A DNA stretch of 63,986 nt, filler included, from Cladosporium halotolerans (Eukaryota): NCBI RefSeq assembly GCF_011745625.1. It is 5 parts of 5 records of this genome, joined end to end, with 100 filler letters (N's around TTAATTAATTAA, not from the genome) between each part and the next. Parts side by side here need not be neighbours in the genome. Positions count along the whole stretch, not along the records: positions 13,490 to 26,818 come from NW_027191569.1; 4 more parts are not named here. The stretch is one strand, 5' to 3'. Below the pieces are notes generated by a model. That model was not told the DNA's origin, ran no database searches, and saw only the letters and a program-made list of their open reading frames with translations. This document shows positions 2,965 to 40,136 of the stretch, in pieces. Every line of letters starts with the position of its first letter. Within the stretch, counting starts at the first letter, position 1. A program made the translations under genes and the position numbers.

Positions 2965-5220
2965 ATGACGAGTATGCGACAAGAGCGGAAGCGTCAAAAT
3001 AAGCCCGCATCGAATCCGTACCCGGTTTCAACAGGCCATGCGAACAGACAGACGCGCCATGCCAAGGACAAGCGTCGTTTGCCACCAAAAGCGCAAGCTT
3101 CACGCCCCTTTCTTGCATCGGGTGAAGGCGTGTCCGGAATAACGTCCCCGAAGGACACGGCAGCAAGGAAACGGGAGAACCAGGACCTGTGCGAGGATTG
3201 CGGCGACGGCGGAACGTTGATCTGCTGCGAATACTGCGATCGATCTTATCACGGTGTCTGTTTAGAGCTTGAGGTCGGCGATTTGCCCGATGACTGGGCA
3301 TGTCCAAAGTGTGAGCGGTCGCAGAAGAATGTGGACCTCTCACTCGACCCGCGAGCACGTCTGTCGGCGAGTAGCCGAGGTTCAATCTCCTGCGGCGAAG
3401 GAACACCACAAGTCTCGCAGGCTTTACACGCATTTGGGGAGCCGGGCGAGAATACCAATGGCAAATTGCGAGGACCTTTGCTGGCGACTTTGCTAGCGAC
3501 AAGCCGTGACACGCCATCCCGCAGCGACAGACGATCAGAAACCCCGCAGTCTTCACGCGCACTTGGCACGCCGAGCGAGAGCAGCAATGTTGAACCAATC
3601 TCTAGGCTCTCATACGAACACCGCGACTATCTGGCGCTCCCTTCCAACATCGAAGGCTATTCTGGAAGAGCTGACGCTCAGTGGGCCTACAGGCCGGCAT
3701 CCAAAACACCGAGCGCTGAGCCGCGACTTCGTGATCTCGTATTACCAGGACGCATCCAAAACATTGATGCTGCGCAACGGGCTGACGGTTCACCAACAAC
3801 ATGCTGCGCGATCAACGTCAGTCCGGAAATCCACAGTGGACAGCAGACTCCGGGAAGCTCGATGCTTGAAGTTCCGGCAACCGACGATCGACGCATGAGT
3901 GATGAGGAGCCGCGGGAGGATGGGAAAAGAGGCATGGTGATTCCTCCAGAGGCGCTGAGGCACCGTATTCCTCAGCTTGAAAATGCGATATCGGTGTCAT
4001 CGGACACGGTTACGCAGATCGTGAGGAAGGATCACAAATGCCAAGATGGTGGCCTGACACCACCCTACAGCGATTGCCATGCGCGGTTGGATTGTGATGA
4101 CCCTCAGTTGATTGAGCCAAAGATGATTCAGAAACTTGCAGAAATGGAATGCTTCCAGCGCCATTGTTCACGTTCTACCCTACTTCAGGCAGATCTTTGC
4201 GCGATAGACTCAGTGTCTGACGCCGTAGACGCCGTCTGGAAAACTTGCACTATCCGAACACCAATAGCAATCGACGGGAGTAGCTGCTTTCCCTCTAGAG
4301 AACCGGACGACGAAGCACTATGGAATGAAGCCTTCTTCGACAGAGCCTCCAGGGTGTTTCTCAATGGTGAAGAGAGCACGCGCCGGGACAATCTTGCGCG
4401 CGCGTTTTTCCAGTTGTTCAAGCCAAACAAGCAGTGCCCCGTCTCCGTCATCGGAATCCAGCCTCGCGAATCTGCTCTGCCTGAGTACATGGTGCCAACC
4501 AGCCTTCATGAATACGTTACACCCCACGCGCAGCGCGATACCATTTACAATCTGACTCCGACTTACTCGTTCGTTGATCTGCATGTCGATTATGGCGCGG
4601 ACGGTATATCAAAGACAATGGGAGAGTGCGAGAAATATTGGTTCCTCTTCCCACCAACTGCGGAGAATTTGCAATTGTTGGCATCGGTTCACGGTGAGCA
4701 TAGGAAATTAGGAAAGCTATTGCCTCGGCTTGAGTGCGGTATTGTTGCCCGGACAAGGTCAACTGAGGCCCTTTACATACCGTCAGGATGCATACACGCC
4801 ACGTACACCACGGCCGGCGGATTCCTGGTCGCGAAAGACTTTGCGACGCCCCTCACGTGCGATGTGATCGCACGCCTTGTGTGCTCGGAATACTTCGCCG
4901 TTTTTGACCACCGAAGTCACGAACTTTGTCTCGACTGGTTCGAGCTGTCGTTGCAAGTTGCGAGCCAGCACAGGGACATTACCAAGGTATGCAGCGCCTG
5001 GTGCATTGTCGAAGACGCTCTCAAGGCTTTCACAGCGGGACCACTACGAAAACACTTCGAAAGGGTCAAAAGCAGGGGCCGCGGCTGGTTCGATGCAGCG
5101 TTAGACAAAGATGATGCATCGCTCGAGGATTGTCCATGCGGATGGAAATGGAAAAGAGGACAACCTCAGTTCAAGGCACACTGGCAGAAAGATCATTTCG
5201 AACGAGGACGCACAAGTTAG
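2965..5220 (+). CDS. PHD finger + JmjC domain protein (putative histone demethylase, KDM2/KDM7/Jhd1-like)
   Basis: C4HC3 PHD CEDC..LICCEYCDRSYHGVC..WACPKC; JmjC with Fe ligands H-V-D and H (FVDLHVDYG...EKYWFLFPPT...LYIPSGCIHATYT); C-terminal CPCG..HW..DH; 751-aa uninterrupted ORF. Confidence 0.85.
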   Translation: MTSMRQERKRQNKPASNPYPVSTGHANRQTRHAKDKRRLPPKAQASRPFLASGEGVSGITSPKDTAARKRENQDLCEDCGDGGTLICCEYCDRSYHGVCLELEVGDLPDDWACPKCERSQKNVDLSLDPRARLSASSRGSISCGEGTPQVSQALHAFGEPGENTNGKLRGPLLATLLATSRDTPSRSDRRSETPQSSRALGTPSESSNVEPISRLSYEHRDYLALPSNIEGYSGRADAQWAYRPASKTPSAEPRLRDLVLPGRIQNIDAAQRADGSPTTCCAINVSPEIHSGQQTPGSSMLEVPATDDRRMSDEEPREDGKRGMVIPPEALRHRIPQLENAISVSSDTVTQIVRKDHKCQDGGLTPPYSDCHARLDCDDPQLIEPKMIQKLAEMECFQRHCSRSTLLQADLCAIDSVSDAVDAVWKTCTIRTPIAIDGSSCFPSREPDDEALWNEAFFDRASRVFLNGEESTRRDNLARAFFQLFKPNKQCPVSVIGIQPRESALPEYMVPTSLHEYVTPHAQRDTIYNLTPTYSFVDLHVDYGADGISKTMGECEKYWFLFPPTAENLQLLASVHGEHRKLGKLLPRLECGIVARTRSTEALYIPSGCIHATYTTAGGFLVAKDFATPLTCDVIARLVCSEYFAVFDHRSHELCLDWFELSLQVASQHRDITKVCSAWCIVEDALKAFTAGPLRKHFERVKSRGRGWFDAALDKDDASLEDCPCGWKWKRGQPQFKAHWQKDHFERGRTS

Positions 5221-13389: not shown

Positions 13390-13489
13390 NNNNNNNNNNN
13401 NNNNNNNNNNNNNNNNNNNNNNNNNNNNNNNNNTTAATTAATTAANNNNNNNNNNNNNNNNNNNNNNNNNNNNNNNNNNNNNNNNNNNN
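13390..13489. other. Artificial contig linker (N-TTAATTAATTAA-N)
   Basis: 100-nt spacer with all-frame stop cassette. Confidence 0.97.
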
Positions 13490-13861
13490 CTTACCTGGTG
13501 GCGCGAACATCATCACAGGTTTCCTGTCCTGAGGCATCTCGCTTTTGAGATCCTCGCAGCGCCAGCAAGCTCTTCCGCCGACGAGCGAATCTTTTCGATG
13601 GCTGGGGACGTTGTCAACGATGAGCGACCAAACACGATGGAGGAGTTGGCAGAGGCTTACCAGGGTTTACGCAGCTGGTACTCGGAAGGACTACTGTGAT
13701 GGACATAAGCTTCTTACACTCCCGAGCACCCGGGAGGACCGTGCACCGAACGAACGACGAACATCCGAGTGGACCCTGAACAAATGAACAACACCTGTCC
13801 AAGAAGCCGAACGAACGAGCACTACGCCTGTTCGGTGTTCGTTTGTTCATTGCCCACCCTG
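13490..13861 (+). mobile_element. hAT transposon 3' end: dimerisation domain (13490-13699) plus right TIR
   Basis: Manual translation LTWWREHHHRFPVLRHLAFEILAAPASSSADERIFSMAGDVV..LRSWYSEGLL*; GAAC subterminal repeats; ends ...cattgcccaccCTG. Confidence 0.85.
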
Positions 13862-15416
13862 GTTGGAGAGGGTTAGAAGGGAGAGGAGGGTGGGATTTAA
13901 GTTTGGACCGGGCACACAAGAAGGCGAATAAGAGAGAGAGGGAGGTGTGATGGGTAGGGTGGATGCAGACAGCCGTTAGCGTGGCGGTTGGGGAGCGGCG
14001 TGGACAGGTTGTGAACACAAGCGTAGGATGCGGATGCATTAGCGTAACGAAGTGCCCGAAAGGTCGGTTCGAGGACAGAAGCGAGGTGGCGGGGGAAGGA
14101 ACGGGAAGGATGGAGGGTGATTGATTGGGAAGGACAGAGAAAGACGAAGGCGTAGTGAAGGGGACGGATGAAGGTCAAGTTCAGACATAGTGTGTGTTGA
14201 CAAGTGTAGAGGGTAGGGGTAGGTATGTGAGTGGGATGCCCGTACGGAGGCATAGGACGGCACGAAGTGGCATGATCGAAGGCAGGGGTGGAAGGAAGAC
14301 GTTTAGAGGTGGCAGTGAGAGAGGATGGAGGATAGGGAATAGTGAGGTAGGAATAGAGTTTGAGAAGGGAAGAGGAGAGTTTTGGGAGGAAGTATGGATG
14401 TTTCAGAGAGAGAAGAGGGGGAGAATTTTGATTTTGGGTCAAAAGAGGGGGGGATAGCGGGGGAATGGAGAAGAGAGAATAAGACGAAGGCAATCGACAA
14501 AGCAAGCATGGAGTCGGTGTTTGAGTAGAGGATGTCGAGTCGGATTATGTCAGCAGGGCGTGAACGTGGGGATGAGTCAGCAAAATCAAAATCATGATCG
14601 GAACGTATACAACGCAGCAAGAGACAAAGAGAGCAAGCGGCGTCATTTTATGGCAAGGATGGTTGGAGCGAGATTGAAAGTGGAATCGGGAGGGAGAAAG
14701 AAAAGTGGGTGAGAAGAATAAGGTAAATAGGGAGAGATGAGGAAGAAAAGAGAAGAAAAGAGAAGAAAAGAAAAGAAAAGAAAAGAGGTGAGGGTTAGGG
14801 TGTATAGAAGATTGGGAGTGTGATGTAGTGGAGGGTTAGTTGAAGTAAGTGAGGGTTGAGTGAGGGAGGGGGGATTAAAGAAGTGAAGTGGGGAGTGAAT
14901 TGGTAGGTGAAATGGAGGGAGTGTGATGAGGGGAGAGTTTGGAGGATGATAATAATTAAGGTGAGTAAGAAGAATGAGGTGGAGAGGGAGAGATGGGGAG
15001 AAAAGAAGAAAAAAAAAAAAAAAGGGGGGTTTTTTTTTTTTTGTTTTAAGAAGGAAGAAGAGAATGAGAGAGGAAGGAATGAAATGGTAAATGTAATATG
15101 AAGGAGAAGAGAGAGAGAGAAGGATGAGGGTTAGGGTGTATAGAGGTTGGTAGATTAGATTATAGAGTGGATTGTAGGAGATGGATATGAGGGTGTATAG
15201 AAGTTGAGGAGTAAGGGAAAGGGTTAGGGGATAGTAGAAGAGAAGAGTAGATTGATGGAAGGTAAGAGAAGGGTATGAAAGGGGAAATAGATAGAGGATA
15301 GTGTTGATTAAAGGTGGTAGGGGAGGAAAGGAAGGAGGAAGAAGAAAGGAGAAGATAAGGTAGAGGAGGGTAGGTAGTTAGGGTGTTTTAGGGTTTTAGG
15401 GTTAGGGTTAGGAGTT
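13862..15416 (+). repeat. Strand-asymmetric G/A-rich tract, including a 729-nt C-free stretch (14688-15416) with embedded GGGTTAG motifs
   Basis: No C between 14687 and 15417 by inspection; (GAAAA)n; A15-G6-T13 at 15009-15042; repeated gagggttagggtgtataga. Confidence 0.9.
15378..15412 (+). repeat. Telomere-type repeats (TTAGGG/TTTTAGGG) downstream of the LINE 3' UTR
   Basis: TTAGGG TG TTTTAGGG TTTTAGGG TTAGGG TTAGG. Confidence 0.85.
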
Positions 15417-16200
15417 CAATTTAGAATATCGAAATGCAGCCTAGCAGATGGCGGCAAAGATAAGCTACATACATTGAAGGTCAGACTGCAGAGAGGAGAG
15501 ACAAATCCATGCGCTTCTCTCTGACCAACTGAGTCAGTCGGATCGGGCTGGGGTACCGGATACACCATTCCCCTTTCATGTGCCACCATGCCTGCAGAGG
15601 ATGGATCACGTATAGCCTTCGCGGGCACCCGACGATCCCATCGATGATTCCCATGGTCCTTCCTGACGATACACCCACCGGGTGCACGCCCCATGGACAG
15701 ACAGCGTTGGCCGGTATCCCGCCATCAGGTTTCACTCCCACATCCAGATTAGATATTGTTCGATCGATTGGCAGCCGACTGCCTACGCCTGCGGTGGCAC
15801 GAACTAACATCTTCTCCAGCAAGGAGCCTCAGCGAATCCTCGCGAGACAATCCCAACCGATGGAACCTGCTTTCATCGCCGCCAGGCGACACGGTTATCC
15901 CAGGTGTAAGACCCGAGTTCCCGTCGGTTCGATCAGAAGCCGAGACCACCCAATCCAGGGTACGTTCGCCTTCCTTAACCCGGTCGACACCTCACTTCCG
16001 GGGGAATGTGCACGCCTCGTGATGGCAGGTCTAACGCACGCAGCACGCAAGCCGACTCTCCCAACCTACTACGCGGCCACAGCCAGCCGAGTATGAGTGG
16101 GCCCCGAAATGGGAAGTGCTGAATCCACAGCTCCACCCAAAAGAGAACCCCACTCTGGAATGGCAAACCCATGCCAGGCATGCGAGGGGTCAACACGACC
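15417..16200 (-). ncRNA. Putative highly structured RNA (LINE 3' UTR)
   Basis: Stems that need G:U pairs on the minus strand: 15525-15541, 15669-15687, and 15875-15890 inside the 15855-15929 stem; no convincing ORF. Confidence 0.5.
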
Positions 16201-16673
16201 AAACGCTAGCGGAGTACCACCCCAAGAAGATTTCCACGCTCACTTCTAGGAGCACCCTCTGTAGAAAAAGGTCGAAACAAGAAGCGGGCCAGAGTCCACT
16301 GGCACCCACCCACAACACCTGGAGTCCACCAGCAGTATCGTCACCCATCAAGCCAGCCGGAGTCCACCGGCATCAGCTAGATAGATGTGATCGATCCTCC
16401 TCTCCAGAAGACGACGTCTGGAGTCCACCAGCAACGCCACGATCCCACGAGCAGGGCCCGGAACAAATCCCGACCCCGGACGGGACGAGAGTTCAGCCCT
16501 ACGAGTCAAGCCACACTAAGCACAGCCACATCGTCGAAGCCACACCTGGAAACGGCCACACTCGACACGGCATCGACACCGTCCCCCCTCTCGACATCCT
16601 CAGGTCATGACCAGGTTATGAGACCAGGTCAGTCCGTCATCGGATACATCGATCAGGGTGTGATGTGGCCGGT

Positions 16674-19600
16674 TCAGTTCGTACCATCCGATGGTACCAA
16701 GTCACGTGGTCGCGGCGCCACAGAGGATTCTGTCGGTTCGAGAAGAGTCGGGTCATTCTCCAATTGCATCCGTGCAGAATAGACATCGCCAAGTGCTCTA
16801 CGTATGGCAGCAAGCGCTGGACCGGCACGATGATATTGCCTAGTATTCAGTAGGAAGTCCAGATGGGTGAAGCTGGCGGACACACCAATGCCGAGCCGCT
16901 TCGCCATTTCGCTCTTCCGGCGTAGCTCGGTGCCAGACAACTGAGGCGGCCGTGGCAAGTACCTACAGTCCTCGTGGCCACGGCGGAATATCACGTCTGG
17001 GCCACAAGCACATAGTTTCCCGAATTGGAAGCGGCCCATTCTGTATCTCACGAAATTTTGTTGATGTTCCAAGGGAGCGAAGAAGACCCAATCGGCACCG
17101 TACAGTGAAGTGGTAGATCGAGATCGCGCAGTCAAGCGGGTGAGATGTCGCGACTGACAGGACAGCATCACCTCGAAGCGTCGCGAACGCCGAAGATGGA
17201 GACGCAGAAGACGACGCGAGCAAGGCAGGGATCGACTCTGCCGAGCGATCGAAGACCATTCCGGTACGTCTCGAAGGCTGTCGAGGAACGGGCGACCGAC
17301 GGGGGCTCGAGGTAGGAAAGGTCGAGAAGCCAAGCAAGAACTTAGCGGACTGTCGGCAGGTGCGAGGCTGAGCAGCCGCTGGAAAGAAGTATGCAGGTGT
17401 GGAAAGCGGATCTCGGGCTCGAGGATACCGCAGAGGTTGGCACCGACGGCGGACCCGTCAGGGCTGCAATCAAGAATCCACCCAATGAGGTCCTTCCAGC
17501 CCACCGTGGCAGCTCGGAAAGCTTTCTTGTTTGCTTCGTTTTGGCGAGACCAGGCAAATATCAGAGGGGCGCCATATTCGAACATAGGGGCAAGATATCT
17601 GCCGTATATGCGCAGACGGTGGGCTGGACCCCAACTGTCCGAGTGGAGGCGTAGGAAGGATGCACGGCCGGTGGCTTGGGAGATGCGTTTGCTCAGATAG
17701 CCGGCGAAATCAATCCCGTTCGATCCCACAGGGAAGCCAAGGTAGGTGTAAGACTCAACGATCGGCAAAGGCTTCCCACAGATGAGGATAGGATGCGACG
17801 CGTGTTCGAGAGCGACAGCGCGTCCAAGAACGAGCCCGCACTTTTTGACATTCACAGCTATGCCAGCCTCAGCGCTCCACTCCGTCAGGAGATCGGCGAG
17901 GCAGCGCAGTGAGGGCAGATCTTGTGCGAGGAGGACGCCGTCGTCGGCATAGAAAAGACTCCGAGGAATGCCGACAGCAGAGTCGTTCAAACGCACGATC
18001 AACTCGTCGATGTAGATGTTGAAGAGGTAAGGTGGGAGAGGCGAGCCTTGCAAGACACCTCTCGTGCGAGGGAACCAGTCAGATGACTGGCCGTTGACGA
18101 GGACGCGGGAGCGTAGACCTCGAAAAGTGAGGTTTTCTATCAAGTTGCGAATCCTGCCCGGGCAGCCACGCCGAACCAGCAGGGCACGGAGGCGTGTGTG
18201 ATCGACCATATCGAACGCTTTCTCGAGGTCTATGAATGCAGCGTAGCGGACCAAGCCGGTCGAGAGCAGGTGGTGCACGACTGCAGCGTTAGTGAGAGTA
18301 GAGTAGTCGCCGCGAAAACCAGCTTGGGTGGGATGCAGCTTCCCCCAACCGGATTTGTCGAAAAAGTGTACGAGCAAGAGCCTCTCGAACAGTTTGCGGT
18401 GCATACATATCAGAGTGATGGGCCTGACGTTGTCGACGTCTCGAGGACGATTAGTGTCCTTGGTAACCATGTGTACATCGGTCGAGTTCCATGAGGCGGG
18501 AGTGCTTCCGCTGGAGAGGCAAAGATTGAACAGTCGACCGAGCACTTTAGGATAGCACGACGGTAGCAGTGCCTTGATGACACGCATGTGCACGCCGTCC
18601 AAGCCGCAGGTCTTGCTCGCATCTTGTCTGCGGATCTCCCTCACCACATGGCTTTCTGAGAGCTCATCGCGGCTCTGGTCTGCTCCGGCGCCGTCGACCG
18701 GTTCGTTGGACACCAAGGCTCGACCGGCATACCGGTCTGCGAGTGAGTCAGATATCTCTCGCAAAGCCGAGAGCCCCCCCGAACGTCCACGCTCGGAAGG
18801 TAGAATGTCGCCATTCTCTCGAGACTCGGCCGCGGCCGACTTGTAAAGTAAAGTGCTGACTTGCGGGTCTTGTCGGTTGGCGGGAACCTTCTTCCTGCTT
18901 ACGCCAGCCGCGGTGGAAGATCTTTTCTGACCAAGGAACCTCCGACAGATCGATCGGACCAGAGCAATCAGACGGCGTTCCAGAGCGGCAGCGTTGACTG
19001 GCACTGCAGCAGACAACAAGCTGAGCGACCTCGTCCCCTCGTCGAAAGCGGCGCACATGTCCCTCCGCACAGTTTCGTCAGACAACTTTCCCAGGTGGAA
19101 GCGAATGGCAGCCGGTGCGTCACCCTGGCACGAAGGGGTCGGCTGGCGAGCACTCAGGTGCAGGCAAAGGGTATAGGCGTGATCGGTGGGCAGGCCTATC
19201 GATGGATTGTCCAGCAAGAAGAAGTTGGCATCGGCGACCCGCCCAGACTGGACGAAACAGTGATCCACGGTGAGTAGCTTCCTCAACACCACCCCGGCAG
19301 GGAGACCGGGTTGTGGTGAAGCATCGGGCTCGGTAGCCTCGAGGGTAGTGAACCCGTGCGAGCGAGCGAAGTCGGACAGAGCTTCCACCCTCTCGGGCGG
19401 GCCAGGTCGACCGAGCTGTGTCTGCAGCCACGGCAAGCGAGCGTTGACGTCTCCCAGGACAACGTGCGACGCTGCCACCGAGCCGAGGGCAGCGACGACG
19501 TCCTCGCTAGACATGCTAGGCTGCAGATAGACGGCGGAGACGGAAGAGGCATCGGCGTGGAAGGTGACGGTCGACGGCGTGGTCCGGACGTCACCCACGA

Positions 19601-19952
19601 GGCGACCTCGTGCGGAAGCCGAGGCCAAGAGGTATATCCCGCCGCCGTTGCGGGTACGCTGGAGCGATGGCGATGGAAGGGGTGTCGAAGCGACGAAGCG
19701 GCGGTCGCGGACATGCCGCTCGTGCCCGACGAACCACGTCTCTGCAAGGAAGAGAAAATCGAAGGAGGTGTGGAGGAGCTTGAGGCAGGCCGTCCACTTC
19801 ATCTGATCGAGTCCGTTGACGTTCACATACCCGACTCTGACGCTAGCCGAGCCTCCTCGCAAGTGCGCCGATCCTGCGGACTTCCTGCTCAAAGGCTGCT
19901 GTGACTGTGGCTTGCTTCGCACGTGCCCGGATGGCTTTCTTTCCCGGGCCAT
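16674..19952 (-). CDS. LINE ORF2: AP endonuclease + reverse transcriptase + C-terminal Cys/His knuckle
   Basis: APE: YVNVNGL, LAETW, GGGIYL, VLGDVNAR, DHCF, TDH; RT: RPITL, QAGFR, FIDLEKAFD, GVLQGSPL, YADD, YLG; C-terminal CACG..RGHEDC; 1092 aa intact. Confidence 0.95.
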   Translation of the reverse strand: MARERKPSGHVRSKPQSQQPLSRKSAGSAHLRGGSASVRVGYVNVNGLDQMKWTACLKLLHTSFDFLFLAETWFVGHERHVRDRRFVASTPLPSPSLQRTRNGGGIYLLASASARGRLVGDVRTTPSTVTFHADASSVSAVYLQPSMSSEDVVAALGSVAASHVVLGDVNARLPWLQTQLGRPGPPERVEALSDFARSHGFTTLEATEPDASPQPGLPAGVVLRKLLTVDHCFVQSGRVADANFFLLDNPSIGLPTDHAYTLCLHLSARQPTPSCQGDAPAAIRFHLGKLSDETVRRDMCAAFDEGTRSLSLLSAAVPVNAAALERRLIALVRSICRRFLGQKRSSTAAGVSRKKVPANRQDPQVSTLLYKSAAAESRENGDILPSERGRSGGLSALREISDSLADRYAGRALVSNEPVDGAGADQSRDELSESHVVREIRRQDASKTCGLDGVHMRVIKALLPSCYPKVLGRLFNLCLSSGSTPASWNSTDVHMVTKDTNRPRDVDNVRPITLICMHRKLFERLLLVHFFDKSGWGKLHPTQAGFRGDYSTLTNAAVVHHLLSTGLVRYAAFIDLEKAFDMVDHTRLRALLVRRGCPGRIRNLIENLTFRGLRSRVLVNGQSSDWFPRTRGVLQGSPLPPYLFNIYIDELIVRLNDSAVGIPRSLFYADDGVLLAQDLPSLRCLADLLTEWSAEAGIAVNVKKCGLVLGRAVALEHASHPILICGKPLPIVESYTYLGFPVGSNGIDFAGYLSKRISQATGRASFLRLHSDSWGPAHRLRIYGRYLAPMFEYGAPLIFAWSRQNEANKKAFRAATVGWKDLIGWILDCSPDGSAVGANLCGILEPEIRFPHLHTSFQRLLSLAPADSPLSSCLASRPFLPRAPVGRPFLDSLRDVPEWSSIARQSRSLPCSRRLLRLHLRRSRRFEVMLSCQSRHLTRLTARSRSTTSLYGADWVFFAPLEHQQNFVRYRMGRFQFGKLCACGPDVIFRRGHEDCRYLPRPPQLSGTELRRKSEMAKRLGIGVSASFTHLDFLLNTRQYHRAGPALAAIRRALGDVYSARMQLENDPTLLEPTESSVAPRPRDLVPSDGTN

Positions 19953-20898
19953 CGGCGGCGTGGAAGTCGGCGGCCAACGTGCTGGCCAAGGGGAGTGGCG
20001 GAGGTGCTTCTTCTCTGGCGTCAGACGAAGAGACGTCGGCGTCAGAAGGACTGATCTCGATCAAAGCCCCAACCCCAGGTGGCCCAGAGCAAGCAGGCGA
20101 GGAAGAGGAGGGAGGCGTTGGAGGGCGTGCCACCGCGCGCAGAGCGAGGCCCTTCGCTTCGTGTATGCCCAGGTACTCTTCCGGTGACAGGCTGTTCTCT
20201 CGTGTCCGGTCGCCGCCCTCACACAGAGCTCCGATGAGCCCGTCCAGCTTGGCTCGGATGTCGACCAGGCCGTCGATCAAGCCGGGCGGCGAAGATAGGA
20301 TGTGCTCTGCCCCGACGACGTCCACCGCGGTCGGCTCAGTCGCGGGAGGATCCTCAGACCTTTCTCCACAGGTGGCCGCCTCCACAGGGGGAGGTAAGCT
20401 GGTGGCGGGAGTGAAGAAGTTCAGGCGACGTTTGGTCGACGGGGGAGTCGCTTGTGCGGCAGCTGTCCGTTTCAGAGGAGTGGGCGCGACGCAAGGAGAG
20501 GGCCCGTCTTGCAAGAGGAGCCCCAAACGACAGTGCTCGGGTCCCTTGTCCTCGAAGCCGGCGCGGATTCCTTCCACGATCGAACGGAAAGGTTCACGAG
20601 CGACTTGCGTCTTGGCCCAGTCGATGTAAGCGGCGTTGCCCAAGCTCGGGCAGGCGAACTTGCCGTTGGTGGTGCAGCACCACCTGCGATAGACCCTGTC
20701 CTCGCCGTCACGCTTGCCGGCCAGGTTCTTGACGTAGTTCCCCTTGCGTTCCCTCTCGGACGAAGAACAGCTCTTGCAAGGCAGGTAAGAGGCGTACTTG
20801 GCGTGCAAACCCTCCGCGACCAGGGCCAGGCCGCCCTCGGGGCTGACGGTCGAAGGCTTTCTGGTGCGGCGTGGAGCGAACCTGCTGGAGATGGGCAT
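19843..20898 (-). CDS. LINE ORF1 (Cys-motif protein), overlaps ORF2 by 110 nt
   Basis: ATG 20898 (MPISSRF); LPCKSC...RWCCTTNGKFAC; Pro/Ser-rich linker; TATAAG about 75 nt upstream. Confidence 0.7.
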   Translation of the reverse strand: MPISSRFAPRRTRKPSTVSPEGGLALVAEGLHAKYASYLPCKSCSSSERERKGNYVKNLAGKRDGEDRVYRRWCCTTNGKFACPSLGNAAYIDWAKTQVAREPFRSIVEGIRAGFEDKGPEHCRLGLLLQDGPSPCVAPTPLKRTAAAQATPPSTKRRLNFFTPATSLPPPVEAATCGERSEDPPATEPTAVDVVGAEHILSSPPGLIDGLVDIRAKLDGLIGALCEGGDRTRENSLSPEEYLGIHEAKGLALRAVARPPTPPSSSSPACSGPPGVGALIEISPSDADVSSSDAREEAPPPLPLASTLAADFHAADGPGKKAIRARAKQATVTAAFEQEVRRIGALARRLG

Positions 20899-21359
20899 GG
20901 GAGTGTGGCAGTGAAGAAGGCGACGATTGGGAAAGTGACGAGAGAGTCCCCCAGAGCCCAGGAAGGGCCCATACTTATAGCCGGAGGCACACGTCGTTGG
21001 AGCACGTCGAGATCGATCGATCACTCCAATGGCCGTGATATCGTTTCGAAAACTGCATCGCCAGCCTCTGTCACGCTACATGCGTCGTGGGATGGCGGCC
21101 GGCGTGCATGAGGCACCCGCATACAGACGCACACGTCGTCCGATCGAGCGTGTGATCAGACGAGCGCAGCGTCCCAGGCACAGAACCAGCCAGGCCTCGA
21201 TCAATCGTGGGGCCACTTCCACATCACTGCAGGAGGTAAAGGTCAAAGCAAGCAGAGAGAGACATCACAGGGACCGGTAGAGCTTGGAGCGGGCAAGCGA
21301 GATTTAAATACAGTCTACAATGCAGAACAACCTCGTTCGTACCATGGCATGGGGTGTAA

Positions 21360-22913
21360 TCACGTGACATCCGTCTCTTCCAGGAAGGCGCCGTCCTGAG
21401 TGAAGGCATCTTCCTCTTCGTCTCGCGCGGGCAGAGACGGCAACAGGATCGAAGGGTCTCGACAGTCGCGGCCCATTTCTTCGAACGATACCTCCTCGAG
21501 CCTCAACCGCACCGGAGGCTTCTTCCCACTCAAGGCGCCTTCTACCAGCGACCATGTCCGTTCGACCATCGTTGCGTCCGGGCGGTTGTGACGTCGTAGA
21601 ATGTTCAGCCAAACGTCAAACTGCGTGGCCGAGAGCGTCTGCTCCACCCAAGAATTCGTCACAGCGCTGCTAGGCAAGAGGGCAAAGATGCCAGGGCCAA
21701 ACTCGGCCCGCAGACGCGCCCACCGCTCTCCGTAATGCAGCTGGTGCTCGAAGCGCCTCGCCTGCCGCCGGTATTCCTCCCCTTTCGGGTCCAGGTCGGG
21801 GTGAGCTTCTTTGAGTCTGGCCTTCTTCACTTCGCCGAACTTCTTCTTCCAGCCGAGGTTGGGTTTGACGGTGGGTCGCAACAGTGCTTGGAAAGCTTCC
21901 CAGAAGTCAGCCAGCCTTCCCCGACGCACGACGGCGCGCACAAAGTCGTCGGCATCGTCGCAGAGCGCCCAGTACGCCGACACGTGTACGGCGACGATGG
22001 CCTCCTTGTCCTTCCCCTCAGGCACGCGCTCCGCCCACTCACCCCGGAGCGCCGTGGTCTTGCGTTCGACGTCGCCCTTCGTTTCGTACATCAGCCCATC
22101 CCGCCACTTGCGGCAGAGGCCAAGCAGGTCTTCCATGGCTCCAGGGCCGGCGACGGCGAAGACGGCGTCGAGGATCTTGTCAACCGCCACCGGAGAAGTT
22201 CGTGATGCTTTGCCCAGCCCCAGCTTGAGCATGGCTTCAGCTTCCGCCCGACCAGAGCGTGTGACGCCGGCTCCGATCTCCTCGACCACGGCAGGTGTCG
22301 ATGCCCTCTCGGAGGGCGGGCCAGAGGGGGTTGGCGAGATTGCTCGCTCGAGGGTGGAGACGACGTCTTCGGCGGCCAAGGGCGGGTCGGCATCGCTTCC
22401 CTCGACACTTGGCTCGACACCTTCGCCCTGGTCGTCTCCGGAGTCGTCGACGACCGTGGCTCTCGAACGTTTCCTCCGGCCAAGGTCCCCCTCTCCAAGC
22501 TCGGCCGCTTCCTGCCGCCGCTTGCGGTCCCTCTCGCGTTTGCGATTCTTGCTGGTGACGGCGAGAACGTAGCGTGGCAGCGCCGCAGTCCTCTCCGCCA
22601 CAGAGCGTTGCGACGCCGACACGAAGAGCGGGCCCGGCGTCTCGGTCAACTCGCGGTGTCGCCTTTCGTCGACGAATCCCTCCCCGTTGCAGGCAGCGCA
22701 GGAGTATCGCTCGCCGTTCGACCGTCGAGGCGAGGGTGTCTTCTGGAGCGAGGCCATGGCGTGGACAAAGGTGTCAAAGCACGAGTGGCGGGCGAGAGAG
22801 GTGGAAGTGGGCGCCATGCCACTGACGAGGCCGGCGGCGGGGCCATCACGCCGCTCGCACGAGACCTGCTGCCTTCGCGTGGCGGCGTGACGACGTGCAT
22901 TGCATCGTTCCAT
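21360..22913 (-). CDS. ORF0, uncharacterised protein carried at the 5' end of the LINE
   Basis: 517-aa open frame; CAAC motif, basic NLS-like stretch, helical domain YGERWARLRAEFGPGIFALLP; same strand and GC as ORF1/ORF2. Confidence 0.7.
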   Translation of the reverse strand: MERCNARRHAATRRQQVSCERRDGPAAGLVSGMAPTSTSLARHSCFDTFVHAMASLQKTPSPRRSNGERYSCAACNGEGFVDERRHRELTETPGPLFVSASQRSVAERTAALPRYVLAVTSKNRKRERDRKRRQEAAELGEGDLGRRKRSRATVVDDSGDDQGEGVEPSVEGSDADPPLAAEDVVSTLERAISPTPSGPPSERASTPAVVEEIGAGVTRSGRAEAEAMLKLGLGKASRTSPVAVDKILDAVFAVAGPGAMEDLLGLCRKWRDGLMYETKGDVERKTTALRGEWAERVPEGKDKEAIVAVHVSAYWALCDDADDFVRAVVRRGRLADFWEAFQALLRPTVKPNLGWKKKFGEVKKARLKEAHPDLDPKGEEYRRQARRFEHQLHYGERWARLRAEFGPGIFALLPSSAVTNSWVEQTLSATQFDVWLNILRRHNRPDATMVERTWSLVEGALSGKKPPVRLRLEEVSFEEMGRDCRDPSILLPSLPARDEEEDAFTQDGAFLEETDVT

Positions 22914-23009
22914 CGTTTCACCCCGTTGCTCGTTTGGCCGGATTGGGGATGTCGCGCAGGGCTCAACGCTGCGGACCGGCAGAGCTTAAACGGACGTCAG
23001 CTTAGGGTT

Positions 23010-23864
23010 TGAACCATAGCCGTCGAGCAATAGAAGCCGCCAGGTACCTCTTTGGCTCTGTTGAGAATGCTTCTCAAAGTGTGCGATCCATTCAAGCATG
23101 AGTTCGTCGTTCATATAGCCTGAATCGGCGACTCCTATAAGCGTTGCATCGTGAAGGGCTTGGAACCACGTGGATTGGTGCTGTTTCGCGGCGATTACGA
23201 GCATAGCTGGTATAGCTTCACCTGCAGCTGAGATGGCTTCAACCACTGTGAGGCTCTCACGGTTATTCGCAGTTGGTAGGAAGTGAGACTTCTCAGGATG
23301 CTCGGTAAGTATGTAATGGCTCTTCGAAGCGCCAATTCGAAAGCCTGTTTCATCCATGTTCCATATGTTTTCAGGTGTAATGCCATGGTCATGGATAACT
23401 ACCTTGAGCTTCTCATACCACCTCTCAATGTCGGCTAGGTCGTAGGCAGCCGCGCGAACAGCCTCAAGAGGTGCTTGCTTACGCTTCTTCCAAACCGGGT
23501 ATCGTTGAAGGAAGCGCGTGGTCCATGAGAGGCTGATCGTTGGTGGTAATGAGGCCTCTGAATGCGCACGCCGTAAGATCGAGTTTGCCGATATTGAGAT
23601 TGCGCGCGGCCGTGCATTCACTCCTAGAGCCTCACAACGCTTCAGCCACGTAACAAGTGCAGCCTCCTGATCGTTGTCAAGCTTCTTGTTTGTAGGCGCT
23701 CTTGTAGATCGTGAATCTACACCTCGAAGGCGTCTACCAAGGCGTTGGTAGGGAACATCGAACAACGTAGCCAAAAGGGTAATTCTCGGCGGTTCAGGCT
23801 GTTCAAATTGAAATTCAACAGCTTGATTAATCCGCTCTTCAATTTGTTGATACTCAGAAGCCAT
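23010..23864 (-). pseudogene. pogo/Fot1 (Tc1-mariner, DDE_1) transposase, truncated at LLLDGYGS
   Basis: psq/CENP-B HTH, IWNMDETGF, DSGYMNDE, RLLLLDGYGS, then AACCCTAA in place of the expected His codon; 13-bp direct repeats GATCGTTGAGCTG at 23918 and 23935 mark the likely TIR. Confidence 0.9.
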
Positions 23865-25205
23865 GGTGGGTGAATGGTATAGGTGAGAAGGCAGTGGATA
23901 CCTCAAAACACGACGTTGATCGTTGAGCTGAACCGATCGTTGAGCTGCACGGCACTCGCTCGCGAGTTCTGGCCGCGGGGAGCCTTGGCCGGCACGACTG
24001 CACGGATACCCTCTCCCCCTGAGCCCAGCTTAGAAAGGCCCTCTGAACGTGCCTGCCAGCTGAGAAGCTTTCCCTCACTTGCTGCAGATGAGCCTCTCGG
24101 ATTCCCAAAGGCACTATTAGGACCTGGAACCGCGCTATCAGTTCAGGACGATCCGACACTAGGCTTTCTAGCCCACGGCAGGTACGACTTTTGGAGAGGC
24201 GTGATGCCTTTCGGCTCTCAACAGACTCCTCCAGACGATTGCGCGCCCTGGGAACAGTTGGTATACTATAACTTGTCGACCTCATATCCTCCGTCAATCC
24301 CCCATGCCTGGCACCCGTCACAAGAACGTCAGCCGGCATTGTACGGCAACTTTCAAGAAGCCGGACATTCTAGTCTTATTTCCTCGAATGTTGGATACCA
24401 GTCACTGGCTGGGCAAGAAGTACAGCCGGTCGAAACAGCGACCTACGCCTCTCTCGATTTCCACCGTGCAACTACGCGGGGAGCAGTCAGCGGTCTTCAA
24501 CCGGCGCCTGGTAACACACTAGTGGAGTCCTTCGCAAGCTAAGATAGCCTTCTCTGCTTCTCCTCTTCCGCGCCAGCAGCGCCTCCAACCTCTGCAGCAT
24601 CTGGTACCCTCTCCTTGCCGAGTACCCGACTAAGAGGAGCGGACCCCCGCCAATCGCAGTAACTTTGAACGCCAACCTCACTGAAGAGTTTGGAATAAGT
24701 TACGTCTCATAGTGAGGTAGACGGAGCTCACCCCGAGGAAAAGGGGGGACACATTTTCCAAGACTAATGTCTGCTTGCACCGCTATAATAGGGCGGAAAG
24801 TATTCTGGTCAATATGGTGAGAATGGTCACTTACAAATGGTCGCTACCGAATGAACGTTGGCCCTTTGATCGACGGGAATGGATTCAAGTCCTCTCGCTC
24901 TACAAGTCCAGGTATCCAATCGAGTAAGATGAAAAAGCGCCGCGCGCTCTTATTGGCTGTTCACGATGATGATGATGAAGTTCATTCCGCCTGGCGCCAA
25001 GCATAAAGGGCAACTGACTGTCGCAGCCTAAGGAAATTGGGAGACCTCGGTCGAGAACTGCAGATCACGCTTGCCAAGACATTAGATAGGTCAGCCCGGT
25101 CAACCCGACCGTGGACTTTGACAGAAACAATCAACTCATGACTTTTGAGTATCACGCACTTTCACCTTCGACAGGTATAGCCGACAGCGGGACTTTAACT
25201 AAGGG

Positions 25206-25516
25206 GTAAGCGTATTAGGTAAGGAAGAGGGGTTCTAGCTAAGGCACTAGGTACGGTTCGTTGTAAATAGTGACTCCAATTGAATATTTAGGTTGCGAAC
25301 GAGGCTCCTATGAAAGAGTGTAAAGTACCTGTCCTATATACCAAGGAGACCGGTGAGCGCTCAATCCCAAGCTGAGCGTGAGCATCTCAGTCTTAACTGA
25401 GACTGAGCCGTCGCTGCTCAGTGGACCAGTCACGTGACTCTATGAGTCCTGACTGGCCCGCTTGTTGAGCCTATAGCAATGGCTTAGCGGGAGGGTCTTT
25501 GGGATTGCTCATCACA
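25206..25516 (-). mobile_element. Possible solo LTR relic
   Basis: Minus strand begins TGTGATG, has TATATA and an LTR-like length; other end not canonical. Confidence 0.25.
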
Positions 25517-25546
25517 CATTGACCCTGCTGAGCACTGGCACAGCGA

Positions 25547-25766
25547 TTTTTTTTATTTTTTTATTTTTTTTAATCATACTGTATGCAAGCTATTTAGCTT
25601 ATGACAGGCCTGGGCTAATTCCCAGACATTTCTTGGTCTTCTATCTGTGCTCTCGCGTTGGTGTCGTTCCTTCGATCCTGCTCGCCATCCCGCCTTACTC
25701 AAGGCGCCACGGCTTTTGGGCTCAGCGCGCTCCTACTGGTCTGTCTTGGTGGTCGCAACTGCTGAC
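25547..25766 (-). mobile_element. 3' end of a second (Tad-like) LINE with A-rich tail
   Basis: Minus strand ...CTGTCATAAGCTAAATAGCTTGCATACAG.. stem-loop followed by an (A7T)n tail; cut by the hAT at 25767. Confidence 0.4.
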
Positions 25767-26542
25767 CATAGTGTTTGAATCTTGAATCGCGATTCAATCA
25801 ATTCAGGTTTGAATTGATTGAATTGAATTTGAATTCGGTCCGTTTGAATTGATTGAATCGGAGTCAATTCAGCCGGTGCTTCTTCGGCAGAGGTATGTCC
25901 TCGAAAATTCGGCCTATACAGCATTCTGAGGTGAATACAACTAACCATGGCTGATCGACCTAGACGAAGCGGCCTCACACAGACATTTGCTGTTCCTGAC
26001 GAGGATGATATATATTATGATCCATCAATTGCACCGTTGGAAGATCCCTCGGGGCCTGCGGAAGAGACTGACACCTCCAGCCTTTACAATACCAACGAGA
26101 CAATTGCCGCCTTCTTTAACGGTTCGTACAGTCCAACCGTGGAAAGCCAGTCAACTACACCTCCTACGCCTACGCCAGGCCCAGTCATTCCTACTGTAGC
26201 TACTACGCCACAGTTTCTCAAGCGGAAGAGACAGAGCAGTACTCCGCATAGGGGCGCAGGGCAGAAAGACAAGGCGCTTTGGAAGCACTCGAGAGCACGA
26301 TTGCCCTATTAGATGCTCGGAGTTGTTAAAAGACTGGCTACACCGTGGAATCCCTCACGCACTGCCAACTAATTACGTTGATAGCGATCAAGACAGCGAC
26401 AACGAGCCATAGAACAGCATGTTTGTGTAGCAACACCTGAATCTTGAATTGAATTGAATTGAATCCGAATTCCTCTGATTCAGCCTGAATTGAATCCGAA
26501 TCCAGGCCTCTGAATTGAATAATTCAGGATTCATAATCTATG
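25767..26542 (+). mobile_element. Internally deleted non-autonomous hAT-like element
   Basis: Imperfect TIRs CATAGTGTTTGAATCTTGAAT / CATAGATTATGAATCCTGAAT; TGAAT subterminal arrays; transposase-like N-terminus 25947-26312; no TSD visible. Confidence 0.7.
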
Positions 26543-26818
26543 GTTACCGTTCACAATGAATAGTTGCTGACATCTCTTTTCGTGCTCGCAGAGGTAGCAG
26601 TAGTACACATCCTTCTGGTCCTTGAGACGTCGCAACAGCTCTCCATATCGCCACACTGGGGATGCTTTCTTACGTGTAGCTTTTTTGGTTTCGACTCGCA
26701 TTTGCAATTTGCAACATCGATCAGTGCTGTTATTGGTTCGGTTGGTGCTGGTTCTGTGGTCAAACCGACACCAACCGGCAACTCGACATGTAAGAACCAT
26801 TTGACCAGATGGTGAACC
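26543..26818 (-). pseudogene. hAT transposase fragment (BED zinc finger) interrupted by the preceding element
   Basis: SPVWRYGELL..VYYCYLCEHEK. Confidence 0.6.
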
Positions 26819-26918
26819 NNNNNNNNNNNNNNNNNNNNNNNNNNNNNNNNNNNNNNNNNNNNTTAATTAATTAANNNNNNNNNNNNNNNNNNNNNNNNNN
26901 NNNNNNNNNNNNNNNNNN
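26819..26918. other. Artificial contig linker
   Basis: N-TTAATTAATTAA-N. Confidence 0.97.
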
Positions 26919-28653: not shown

Positions 28654-30565
28654 CTACCACATCCGCGCTACTGGTACGTTTCCGGGCAAGGCTGCGTTGG
28701 GCCATCCAAGGCAGGTTGACAGTCATGAGCAACATTTCGACTTGCAGCATCTGGGGAATTGTGCTAGGCAGGTACTCTCGCCTTGCCGACGCGAGGTCCG
28801 CGCCGTATGATTTCCTTCCTCTTCGCCACTTGCTCTATTTTGTTCTCGGCTCTCACCATTTCTCTCCTGACCTTCGCTTTCTCTTTCTCAGCTTTCATCC
28901 TCTCCTTTTCGATCGCCTTCATCTCCTTCTCGGCCTGCTTCCGGTCTTTCTCTGCATGCTTCCTTTACTTGTCGGCTTCGGCACGCTCCCACATTTTTCT
29001 CGCTTCCACGATGTCCTCGAATGTCATAACTTTGTTGCCTATCTTTCTCTCATTTGCATGTTTTCGTGCTTTCTTCTCATTGTTCTGCTGCATTGGTGCA
29101 TCATTCTCGTCTTTGAGAAGCTCGCGTTCTGCGAAGGCCCGCTTTGCAGCATTGAGAATCTTCTGCAGATACGGGTCCACATGCGCAACATTTTCGGGCC
29201 TTTCTTGAAGCTTACTTTGGAGTGCCGCAAGACTAATAGTGTTGGTTGGTGTTTTCAGCGAAGCAGGAGACAGCGCAGGTTGTGTGGGTACAGTGGCTGC
29301 GATTTCTGCGGGGGCTGGATTGACGGGAGCTTGCTGCATACTATCAAAAACTTTTCGAGGGTTGAAAGGGAAAATTCCCGTCTTGGACCATCCAGATCTG
29401 ATGTTCCGAGAAGTCAGAGCGATATTGTGGGCTCGGCTGTATAGCAGCGTAAAATGGGCCTTGTTGACAGTCTCCGCCCCACCGCGATACATAAGATCAA
29501 CTTGCTCGCGATAGGCCATCTTCAGTGGCGAGAACACCCCGACATCGCACGGCTGTGTCAAATGGGTCGTGTGGGATGGCTGGCGACACAGCCACGATGT
29601 TTTTTTGGAAGCAAAATGTCATCACTCCCAGAGACTCATGGGTGTTGAATCCGTCGACGATTAAAATGCGAGGTTTGCCCGCAGCCCGGTCTTTGGTGGG
29701 GGGATTGAATACATTCTGCACCCAGTACAGGTTTATCTTAGAATTGATGTAACCCTTATCGCTGCATGCGTAATGCCAGTCTGGGGTATCGTGAGAGATC
29801 CACGTGTTTTGCAATGTCTTTCCCGGCCAGATGATCAGCGGAGGCAAAGCTCTCCCCTTTGCTGATATGCATTCTACTGCGGTGATCATTGTGCGACGCA
29901 ATCTAACGCCGCGACGGCTTTGCGCATCGCTGCGGGACACAAGCACTTTCATCGTGGTAAGATCGCTGAGCAACACGCCAATCTCATCCATGATGTACAC
30001 GTTCTCTTGCAAGACATCACGTTCGGAGAGCTCCTTGCTCATAACCTCAAACCATTGCTCAACCTTGCTGCGAATGTTTTTCTCGTGTCTCTGCCAATCG
30101 ATTGCTCTCACTTTTGCAGCTTTGAGTTCGGGGTGGCGCTTATGGAAAGCTTGTGGCCAGTCCTTCCCGGGTAGACGATAGTTGGACGAGGACCCTGCAG
30201 CGTACCGCTGGCGCAGGAGAATGCCCGCAAAGTATCGGAGGTGTTTCACGCGAGCAGGGTAGCCATTTCTGTGCAGCCGCAACAGGTATTCTACAAGGGC
30301 TTTCTCCTGCTGTGGTGTAAGTAATTGCTGTTGCTCAGCACGTTGGCGCCGCGTCTGGCGACCGTGCGACGCGGTGCCATCGAGTTGACACGGGAACATC
30401 ATTGGGAGGTTCAGAAAGACGGGTTTCTGCAGCGCACAGCATGTTTCTGAGAGCGCGAAGCGCAGGTGGTTGCTGCAGGAGACACTGAAAGCCACGGAAG
30501 GAAGTTGGGCTGCAGGAACGAGTTTCGCCCGCCTGGTGGTTCCAGAAGTCCCTGACAGACGCCAA
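28654..30565 (-). pseudogene. pogo/Fot1-family transposase, disrupted
   Basis: HTH, PGKDWPQAF, YIMDEIG, LIVDGFNTH, QPCDVGVFSPLK, C-terminal PVARMW* at 28654; frameshifts and a stop at 28965. Confidence 0.9.
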
Positions 30566-40036: not shown

Positions 40037-40136
40037 NNNNNNNNNNNNNNNNNNNNNNNNNNNNNNNNNNNNNNNNNNNNTTAATTAATTAANNNNNNNN
40101 NNNNNNNNNNNNNNNNNNNNNNNNNNNNNNNNNNNN
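40037..40136. other. Artificial contig linker
   Basis: N-TTAATTAATTAA-N. Confidence 0.97.

Follow-up and report, generated by a model that had tools for sequence, protein, structure and literature searches.

Next to the 3' end of a long interspersed nuclear element (LINE), a retrotransposon without long terminal repeats (non-LTR), the genome of Cladosporium halotolerans (assembly GCF_011745625.1) contains 729 nucleotides (nt) without a single cytosine, which raises the question of how one strand of complex DNA came to lack one of the four bases. The DNA analysed here (63,986 nt, hereafter the window) is a concatenation of contigs, and the contig bearing the tract occupies positions 13490-26818. 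The contigs are separated by artificial linkers of 100 nt each (N44-TTAATTAATTAA-N44, no strand; 13390-13489, 26819-26918, 40037-40136, and 53220-53319), and the full contig pieces measure 13329, 13118, and 13083 nt, in descending order. Since the window consists of joined contigs, features on separate pieces must not be taken as neighbours.

The longest C-free run of the window is exactly 14688..15416 (+ strand), with 281 A, 300 G, and 148 T. Its last 3 nt (15414-15416) are LINE body already, and the 36 nt before them (15378-15413) form a telomere-like tail; the non-telomeric heteropolymer part is 14688-15377 (+). Read on the LINE-sense strand, the run has no G in 729 positions (C.41, T.385, A.20), in agreement with an earlier note on this DNA, which had described the loss as strand-specific. 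The C content of the window is 26%, which gives a chance of about 0.74^729 = 1e-95 for a gap of this length by our own arithmetic; at 11% C, as in the adjacent 13862-14687, it is about 1e-37. The second-longest real C-free run measures 90 nt (14314-14403) and lies in the same G-rich region, and the remaining C-free runs of ~105 nt are the N linkers. GC skew is 0.70 within 14001-15000, and a search of 13490-16800 against Rfam (E up to 1) gave no match.

The tract is not a repeat array. T and G lack autocorrelation at lag 6, a spacing of 6 is depleted (3 vs 9.4), and dinucleotide ratios are near-random (0.79-1.41; TpA 0.88). Distinct 8-mers amount to 0.83 of positions vs 0.907 in shuffled sequence, and the zlib size is 209 vs 213 bytes, while a perfect TTAGGG array of equal length yields 0.009 and 21 bytes. 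Telomeric words are nevertheless more frequent than composition gives: 14688-15377 contains 21 telomeric 6-mers vs 4.2 in shuffles (0 of 500 shuffles as high) and 16 telomeric 7-mers vs 1.4, and GGGTTAGGG occurs at 14792, 15128, 15221, and 15399. The earlier note had reported a 729-nt, non-periodic three-letter tract with GGGTTAG islands; the base counts are exact, the complexity is near random, the contigs of three sequencing runs agree, and the first three of these GGGTTAGGG sites coincide with islands. It had also called the tract prone to G-quadruplexes (G4), which was not borne out. A single G4 motif (G3+N1-7, four runs) is present and is formed by the terminal repeats, compared with shuffle values of 0.6 (loops up to 7) and 1.7 (loops up to 12); terminal repeats aside, the tract is no more G4-prone than its composition gives.

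An internal direct duplication is present (copy 1, 14702..14808; copy 2, 14958..15144; both +), which consists of two blocks, 14702-14767 vs 14958-15023 (66 nt, 76%) and 14769-14808 vs 15105-15144 (40 nt, 78%), with start-to-start spacings of 256 and 336 nt. The 66-nt pair has 16 mismatches, 15 of them A/G and one G/T. Copy 2 holds A15-G6-T13 (~15009-15042), a hairpin-like A/T inverted repeat within the otherwise purine-rich tract, whose right arm has T or G where the perfect complement of the left arm needs C.

The tract is genuine, neither a sequencing nor an assembly artefact. Fourteen public runs of eight studies contain at least 0.90 of the sampled words from 13600-15800, and contigs of three DNA runs from separate studies (X2, X5, and X6), mapped onto the window, bridge the junction of tract and LINE. 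One 2176-nt contig of X2 spans 13861-15661 with zero differing letters; the X5 contigs cover 13861-14993 (one differing letter) and 15056-16500 (none), and those of X6 cover 13861-14990 and 15056-15672 (none). An artefact might be suspected from the low-complexity sequence near a contig end and from the break of the X5 and X6 contigs at A15-G6-T13. However, the tract was reproduced with 0-1 differences in three runs of three studies, the fourteen runs contain it, and a second tract-bearing locus (L022, L023, and L049, one locus from three metagenome samples) is 99.98-100% identical across these samples, so that an artefact hardly deserves further consideration. Tract depth is 88.2, 12.4, and 38.7 in X2, X5, and X6 contigs vs 88-134, 13.7, and 35-55 for the 3' untranslated region of the LINE; at this single-copy depth, there is no second tract copy in those genomes. 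RNA data were uninformative on transcription of the tract: run X18 (one study, contigs only) gave a single 211-nt contig at 15423-15627, and five further RNA runs had shares of sampled words of 0.07-0.10.

The tract passes into about 36 nt of telomere-like repeats (TTAGGG-TG-TTTTAGGG-TTTTAGGG-TTAGGG-TTAGG-A, 15378..15413, +), which abut the 3' end of the minus-strand LINE, as the earlier note had stated. On the LINE-sense strand this tail is of (CCCTAA)n type, as after every LINE 3' end of the family, and its variant CCCTAAAA is common to the window and L003. The family was followed in 68 loci (L001-L068) recovered by scanning metagenome contigs. Each 3' end that is present has the terminal sequence ...TTGAAC, ...ATGAAC, or ...AAACC and then (CCCTAA)2-4. 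Fifteen independent 3' junctions with at least 89 nt of flank were compared, namely those of the window (WIN), L002, L003, L005, L012, L014, L015, L018, L023, L024 (at 4577), L028, L030, L033, L034, and L045. Junctions with 0-7 nt of flank (L010 at 11407, L011, L016, and L039) were left out, as were telomere-like words without a preceding LINE 3' terminus (L010 at 356, 10575, and 10606; L018 at 6409; L024 at 3090 and 4695; L041; L052; a second L033 row; and window 32223) and the terminal arrays of L047 and L050. At all 15 junctions, and at four more whose flank is <60 nt, the element ends in ...AAC or ...ACC and (CCCTAA)2-4 comes next, so that the telomeric repeats have a fixed orientation. 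Ordinary DNA lies beyond the tail at 11 of the 15 junctions and a G-free (LINE-sense) tract at the other four; since the repeats are always present although 11 flanks are ordinary, they behave as the element's own 3' tail. As to confinement of the family to chromosome ends, the CCCTAA arrays at the contig starts of L047 and L050 speak for it and the 11 ordinary 3' flanks against it.

The same survey bears on whether the tract is a tail encoded by the element or a 3' transduction, transcribed in LINE RNA and copied with each insertion; an encoded tail, by analogy with HeT-A of Drosophila, was one of two options given in the earlier note. The 3' non-coding regions of HeT-A and TART have a strand bias oriented like telomerase repeats, beside the terminal retrotransposon; in HeT-A, this bias is a property of the transcribed element itself and recurs from copy to copy. 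The window tract also lies directly 3' of the LINE on the sense strand, with its bias in the same sense. However, homology of the window with its three closest copies ends in telomere repeats, at 15398 for L002 (87.6%), 15393 for L005 (83.9%), and 15374 for L003 (81.5%); a tract is missing from 11 of 15 junctions, the four that exist are unrelated to each other, and the single-copy depth speaks against transduction as well. An encoded tail is therefore very hard to sustain. The tract is no part of the LINE and no conserved HeT-A-like portion of it, and it differs from HeT-A in lying outside the conserved element sequence and in being absent from most copies.

The four junctions with a tract form a class of their own. 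Over the first ~90 nt of flank (89 in L002), G counts are bimodal: 0, 0, 0, and 2 in WIN, L002, L015, and L023, and 6-21 in the other eleven. In addition to the 729 nt of the window, the G-free stretch of L002 measures at least 89 nt and consists of CCCTTACTTCCA x6 followed by canonical repeats to the contig end, that of L015 extends for at least 1000 nt to the contig end, and the L023 locus has ~2.5 kb at no more than 1% G, with G-free runs of 739 and 534 nt. The LINEs of L015 and L023 are distant relatives, with ORF2 (ORF, open reading frame) 38-40% identical to that of the window. No sequence shared among the tracts beyond chance was found, even with A and G collapsed, and the 12-mer k-mers of L002 are not enriched in the window tract. 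No other stretch of >210 nt with 2% or less G or C exists in the 68 loci. It is invariably the LINE-sense strand that is G-free in these four cases, and the C-free strand runs into TTAGGG, continuing the telomeric G-strand. The comparison of copies suggested in the earlier note thus had a divided outcome: the tract is not conserved, as a templated tail would be, and the tracts at these four junctions differ yet all lack G. Non-canonical or de novo end synthesis is thereby left open.

Composition links the tracts. The T fraction is 19-20% in the window, 20% in L015, and 16-18% in L023, vs 33% in TTAGGG; the A/G ratio differs among them, and T stays at 16-20%. Constant T with varying A/G is consistent with a single kind of synthesis and subsequent G-to-A change of varying extent.

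The conventional source of such DNA would be a canonical TTAGGG array, trapped from a telomere or a LINE tail, expanded by slippage and decayed by cytosine deamination alone, with no unusual synthesis. The enrichment of telomeric k-mers agrees with this, and so do several features of the other tracts. In L015, the spacing of A-run starts peaks at 5-7 nt (a weak signal) and the pyrimidine (Y) run mode is 4; in L015 and L023, T stands after G and before A, with TTA and TTARRR enriched 2- to 3-fold; tandem sub-repeats occur in L015 and L002; and a three-letter alphabet is closed under G-to-A change and duplication. Long self-alignments at 58-65% in L015 and L023 proved composition-driven and were not used. 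However, deamination cannot remove T, so that a T content of 16-20% instead of 33% is left unexplained. The window tract shows neither residual hexamer periodicity nor TTAGGG-like composition, with spacing 6 depleted and complexity near random, and substitution that scrambled T this far should also have made C, of which there is none in 729 nt or in 1000 nt. Decay of this kind is accordingly improbable.

Another conventional origin is one-sided erosion of ordinary purine-rich DNA, in which C lay mostly in CpA and CpG, the contexts of repeat-induced point mutation (RIP), or in which a single-stranded G-strand was deaminated near a chromosome end. RIP turns C into T on both strands and leaves AT-rich repeats, with TpA/ApT above ~0.89 and (CpA+TpG)/(ApC+GpT) below ~1.03. 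The two indices are 1.24 and 0.82 in the window tract, 1.56 and 0.09 in L015, and 2.30 and 0.28 in L049, values that are RIP-like in all three tracts; the window tract passes with 41% G, however, and telomere-like syntax gives equal values. In L015 and L049, the extreme values are restricted to the tract, and the adjoining LINE and the far flank of L049 are normal; this could be RIP limited to an internally repetitive tract or intrinsic telomere-like syntax. The nearly A/G-only divergence of the duplicate also points to erosion, and an unconverted state, with 8-16% C, could be seen in the G-rich, C-poor flank at 13862..14687 (+; A.29, C.11, G.42, T.17). This flank is a mosaic that includes the 90-nt C-free patch; its C content of 1-16 per 100 nt supports the earlier note, in which C was sparse back to 13862.

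The details do not favour erosion. C-to-T change should raise T, which it has not done here (.20 in the tract vs.17 in the flank, where C is.11). TpA is not enriched in the window tract (0.88), a C content of 13 per 100 nt drops to zero abruptly at 14687/14688, and no RIP signal was detected in the LINE, hAT, and pogo sequences and flanks near the tract. The flank resembles the tract no more than shuffled controls do (best 34.7 bits; shuffles mean 26.5, maximum 39.4). Erosion is thus a poor candidate, even weaker than decay of TTAGGG. The earlier note had dismissed RIP altogether. It was right in that RIP-type deamination cannot make a C-free strand from ordinary DNA, and went too far in that deamination on a C-less strand can only turn G into A, which preserves the alphabet, as in 15 of the 16 mismatches of the duplicate.

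Since decay of TTAGGG and C-to-T erosion both fit poorly, the strand must have been made C-free. Our tentative preference is that the tract was a C-free, telomere-type G-strand block at an end with TTAGGG repeats, that it was present before this end primed the LINE, and that it has changed since then only by duplication, slippage, and A/G transitions; we consider this plausible, though short of established. The strand would first have been laid down by a telomere-type polymerisation that never called for dCTP, with a G-less template or with no template. It would then have sat at a 3' end carrying TTAGGG, most likely where a chromosome had once ended or a break had healed, and from this end an APE-type LINE (APE, apurinic/apyrimidinic endonuclease), with an RNA ending in (CCCUAA)n, may have been reverse-transcribed. 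The later changes that are visible are tandem duplication, slippage, and A/G transitions only. None of these creates C on a C-less strand, which would thus have stayed three-letter.

Several observations argue for such a pre-existing block. The telomeric words enriched within the tract speak for it, as does the orientation common to all four cases. So do the end of LINE homology within the telomere repeats, the restriction of extreme dinucleotide indices to the tract in L015 and L049, the enrichment of TTA and TTARRR in L015 and L023, and the steady T fraction. The internal duplicate is 24% diverged, while the LINE has open reading frames of 1092, 393, and 517 aa, of which ORF2 has a 100% match elsewhere, so that the tract looks older than the LINE. 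TTAGGGT occurs at 15378-15384 and again at 23002-23008, within TTAGGGTTT at the LINE 5' junction (23002..23010, +). As a candidate 7-nt target-site duplication, this pair would bracket the LINE with its tail and leave the tract outside. The contigs of L047 and L050 open with CCCTAA repeats (66 and 90 nt), downstream of which LINE sequence follows in the same orientation, its 3' end directed away from the repeats; a LINE primed from a G-strand end should be oriented in this way.

Other observations weigh against a block older than the LINE. All three kb-scale tracts are located 3' of the LINE and never on its other side. The near-random dinucleotides and missing hexamer period mean that simple decay of TTAGGG does not account for the window tract. 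Consisting of a telomere word, the 7-nt duplication carries little weight, and no longer or convincing target-site duplication was found in the 15 loci examined; 5' ends could not be placed by pairwise blastn on distant LINE copies. The CCCTAA runs of L047 and L050, at 66 and 90 nt, are far below 0.7-2.5 kb. An ORF2-profile scan of genome contigs and viral contigs yielded no relatives and no further loci. Finally, the 12-mer array of L002 (CCCTTACTTCCA x6) separates the two repeats that belong to the LINE from further canonical ones, which would fit synthesis at insertion, and TTAGGGTGT, the first words of the LINE-proximal tail next to the tract, recurs at 14794 and 15130, which could reflect repeated abortive priming on LINE RNA.

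These last two points lead to the main competitor, in which the tract is untemplated filler made at the junction during insertion. A reverse transcriptase or other polymerase would have extended the primer with A, G, and T before copying (CCCUAA)n, or a G-less C/U/A tail of the CutA type on the LINE RNA would have been copied into DNA. This would account for a complexity nearly that of random three-letter sequence, for the homopolymer runs in A15-G6-T13, for tracts that are locus-specific and always contiguous with the LINE tail on its 3' side only, for the bimodal G counts (0-2 per 90 nt at four junctions vs 6-21 at eleven), for the three occurrences of TTAGGGTGT, and for the position of the L002 array, whose template was not found in the LINE copies. 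Conversely, the internal duplicate is 24% diverged although the LINE is intact, the candidate TTAGGGT duplication leaves the tract out, and the strongly G-rich flank at 13862-14687 would be a coincidence. To our knowledge, no LINE reverse transcriptase is reported to add kilobases without a template. On balance, filler is possible but doubtful.

For the CutA variant, the fit is confined to the alphabet. CutA, a terminal nucleotidyl transferase of the filamentous ascomycetes Aspergillus nidulans and Thielavia terrestris, makes a template-independent polymer of C, A, and U that excludes G (PMC7498324, PMC5689010), the same alphabet as that of the LINE-sense strand, where G is absent from all 729 positions. 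Composition and length do not match: the in vitro tails contain ~2% U and are short 3'-terminal extensions (PMC5689010), compared with 38.5% T over at least 690 nt here. The accessible parts of the two papers contain no link between CutA and retrotransposons (PMC7498324, PMC5689010).

The LINE itself is intact and occupies 15414..23001 (-), with its 3' end ...TTGAAC at 15414 and its 5' end GCTGACGTC... at 23001, the latter placed by homology with L002. It carries three ORFs on the minus strand: a first ORF of 517 aa (P0002; 21360..22913), a 393-aa ORF (19843..21024), and ORF2 of 1092 aa (16674..19952). ORF2 comprises an N-terminal APE-fold endonuclease, RVT_1, and a C-terminal Cys/His motif; the other two have no Pfam family, and homologues of P0002 lie upstream of ORF2 in L002 and L004. 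The reverse transcriptase is of the non-LTR class (RVT_1, E 9.6e-26; ORF2 profile against PDB: R2, E 3.9e-36, and L1 ORF2p, E 4e-27). The N-terminal 290 residues are weak by sequence (Exo_endo_phos_2, E 0.17); a profile of this domain had no PDB match, and hhalign aligned the reverse transcriptase only. The structural model of the domain has a mean pLDDT (predicted local distance difference test) of 82.5, and its best Foldseek matches are the L1 endonuclease, human APE1, and the R1Bm and TRAS1 endonucleases (E 3e-10 to 4e-9, probability 1.00); in the ESM Atlas, EEP and LINE ORF2 clusters matched at 0.96. The fold of this model clearly identifies the ORF2 N-terminus as a predicted APE-type endonuclease.

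A C-x-C-x9-H-x2-C motif near the C-terminus of ORF2 (residues ~981-996; window 16674-16990, -) is invariant in 20 of 20 aligned relatives, and no Pfam family matched the ~95 residues beyond it. ORF2 matches a protein cluster from other assemblies with 100% identity across 97% of its length. Among named homologues, those of Hortaea werneckii (87%, with 64% of the query covered) and of Cladosporium (69% and 65%) are nearest, which points to a Dothideomycete-like fungal host. The P0002 homologue is co-oriented with ORF2 in the window, L002, and L004; in L015 (784-2862, -) and L049 (6292-7902, -), it lies on the opposite strand, upstream of the ORF2 unit, which could be a 5' inversion or a different element architecture.

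Comparable systems are known from animals and fungi. TRAS1 and SART1 are telomere-repeat-specific LINEs of the APE type in Bombyx, joined to telomeric repeats in a fixed orientation. The window LINE resembles them in combining an APE-fold endonuclease with a reverse transcriptase (TRAS1 endonuclease, 1wdu, Foldseek E 3.7e-9). It differs in that 2-4 repeat units follow the element whatever the flank, 11 of 15 flanks being ordinary, and we know of no three-letter tract in TRAS or SART. Irregular telomeres such as the TG1-3 of yeast and the AG1-8 of Dictyostelium, as well as degenerate or interstitial repeats, likewise have a G-strand alphabet without C. The tract shares with them a C-less G-strand in the same orientation and embedded canonical islands, and departs from them in its kb scale, near-random order without a repeat unit, and T content of 16-20%, not 33%.

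In fungi, the telomeric non-LTR elements MoTeR, FoTeR, and Cnl1 have a 3' end followed by 3-7 telomere repeats and a 5' end with about one motif, form head-to-tail arrays, carry a restriction-enzyme-like (REL) endonuclease, and group with CRE and SLACS; FoTeR is described in the orientation also seen in L047 and L050 (PMC12857005). The same asymmetry of the two ends is found here between 15378-15413 and 23002-23010, and their arrays can be compared with L024, in which a fragment of the 3' end (~4520-4588) stands upstream of a complete copy, head to tail. They differ from the window LINE in having REL instead of the APE fold, and the available text describes variable number tandem repeats in them and no tract lacking one base (PMC12857005). 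'Family 4' of Zymoseptoria tritici is also a Dothideomycete element with TTAGGG at its 3' end; it is telomere-restricted, with one to three TTAGGG units there, always directed away from the telomere (PMC4522978). According to the part of that source available, however, it is an endonuclease-less, Penelope-like element of 3.4-3.5 kb (PMC4522978), whereas the window LINE has ~7.6 kb, three ORFs, and an APE domain. We file the LINE as a new telomere-associated retrotransposon of APE type with a (CCCTAA)n tail. It belongs to a LINE lineage that is widespread among fungi, has a predicted APE-fold endonuclease and a (CCCTAA)n tail, and is separate from the REL-type elements MoTeR and FoTeR.

The ordinary flanks of the family were also inspected. 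The pyrimidine fraction of the 11 ordinary 3' flanks is 0.547 vs 0.523 in 51 control windows; as these flanks are not notably pyrimidine-rich, a graded target preference is not supported. The flanks of L003 (5057), L005 (4622), L014 (14181), and L028 (13179) start with the GAYAYC-like words GATATACC, GACATACC, GATACC, and GATATC, which may mark a preferred nick site of the endonuclease or belong to the RNA tail as an additional templated segment. The continuation in both L002 and L034 is CCCTTACTT. Some stretches of 170-210 nt were rejected as tracts, being of a different kind: those poor in G in L039 (a tandem repeat rich in CT), in L014, and in L024, and those poor in C at the ends of L056, where an 18-nt unit is repeated in tandem. 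L056 is a distant LINE relative (32% identity) on a 4.4-kb contig; its positions 1-80 are four copies of a 20-nt unit CCTAAAATTAAATTTTTCAT, and the C-free 18-nt repeat (about GTAGAGTTAGAAGGAAAT) lies at 4211-4379, downstream of the ORF on the sense strand at the contig end, in the opposite strand sense to the G-free LINE-sense tracts.

On the other side of the tract, the C-poor zone ends at 13862, where the 3' end of a multi-copy hAT transposon is located at the contig start (13490..13861, +; Dimer_Tnp_hAT, E 2.3e-11 at 13499-13696). Depth at 13500-13861 is 3-8 times that of the tract. Left of 13861, the X2, X5, and X6 contigs have 375 other letters in place of the hAT end, including a 46-nt near-copy of 14231-14276, which makes the true left neighbour of 13862 uncertain; a 16-nt word from the loose-end consensus of these contigs was not found in the window. 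The mismatch at 13861/13862 reflects either a strain-specific hAT insertion or one assembly mis-routed at the repeat. An ORF at 13897-14505 (-) was discarded, as it translates into a low-complexity peptide.

Beside the LINE 5' junction lies a C-terminally truncated Tc5/pogo transposase fragment (about 22986/23011..23906, -; HTH_Tnp_Tc5; DDE_1 profile positions 6-91 of 177), whose C-terminal cut coincides exactly with the junction. A blastn search of 22951-26818 against the other window contigs gave no match; a second Tc5/pogo transposase fragment (29497-30594, -), on a different contig, has no blastn match to the first. Another contig carries a short interstitial telomere-like site, CACCCCAACCCTAACCCTAACAACCCTCAACCC (32215-32249), in ordinary sequence, with no LINE 3' end before it and no G-free tract after it. 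A head-to-head telomere fusion with this CCCTAA site was dropped, because the site sits on a different contig.

Telomere-tailed retrotransposons and degenerate telomere repeats are thus known. A complex, non-periodic, kb-scale tract without one base, always on the telomeric C-strand side of a LINE 3' junction, did not turn up in our literature searches: among the papers listed on telomeric repeats, fungal non-LTR elements, and C- or G-free tracts, none describes such a tract next to a telomeric retrotransposon in its title or abstract. Strict restriction to three letters betrays how a strand was synthesised, either from a template lacking one base or from none, and the tracts may therefore record non-canonical end extension or healing in filamentous fungi, or a terminal-transferase step in LINE integration. 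It is conceivable, if rather unlikely, that they are genomic fossils of kb-scale, template-independent polymerisation with one nucleotide excluded, fixed repeatedly at LINE 3' junctions in distant fungi (the window, L002, L015, and the L023 locus). Similar G-free (LINE-sense) tracts do recur in distant fungi, and the fossil reading, if true, would mean that eukaryotic genomes can acquire truly de novo DNA sequence in this way.

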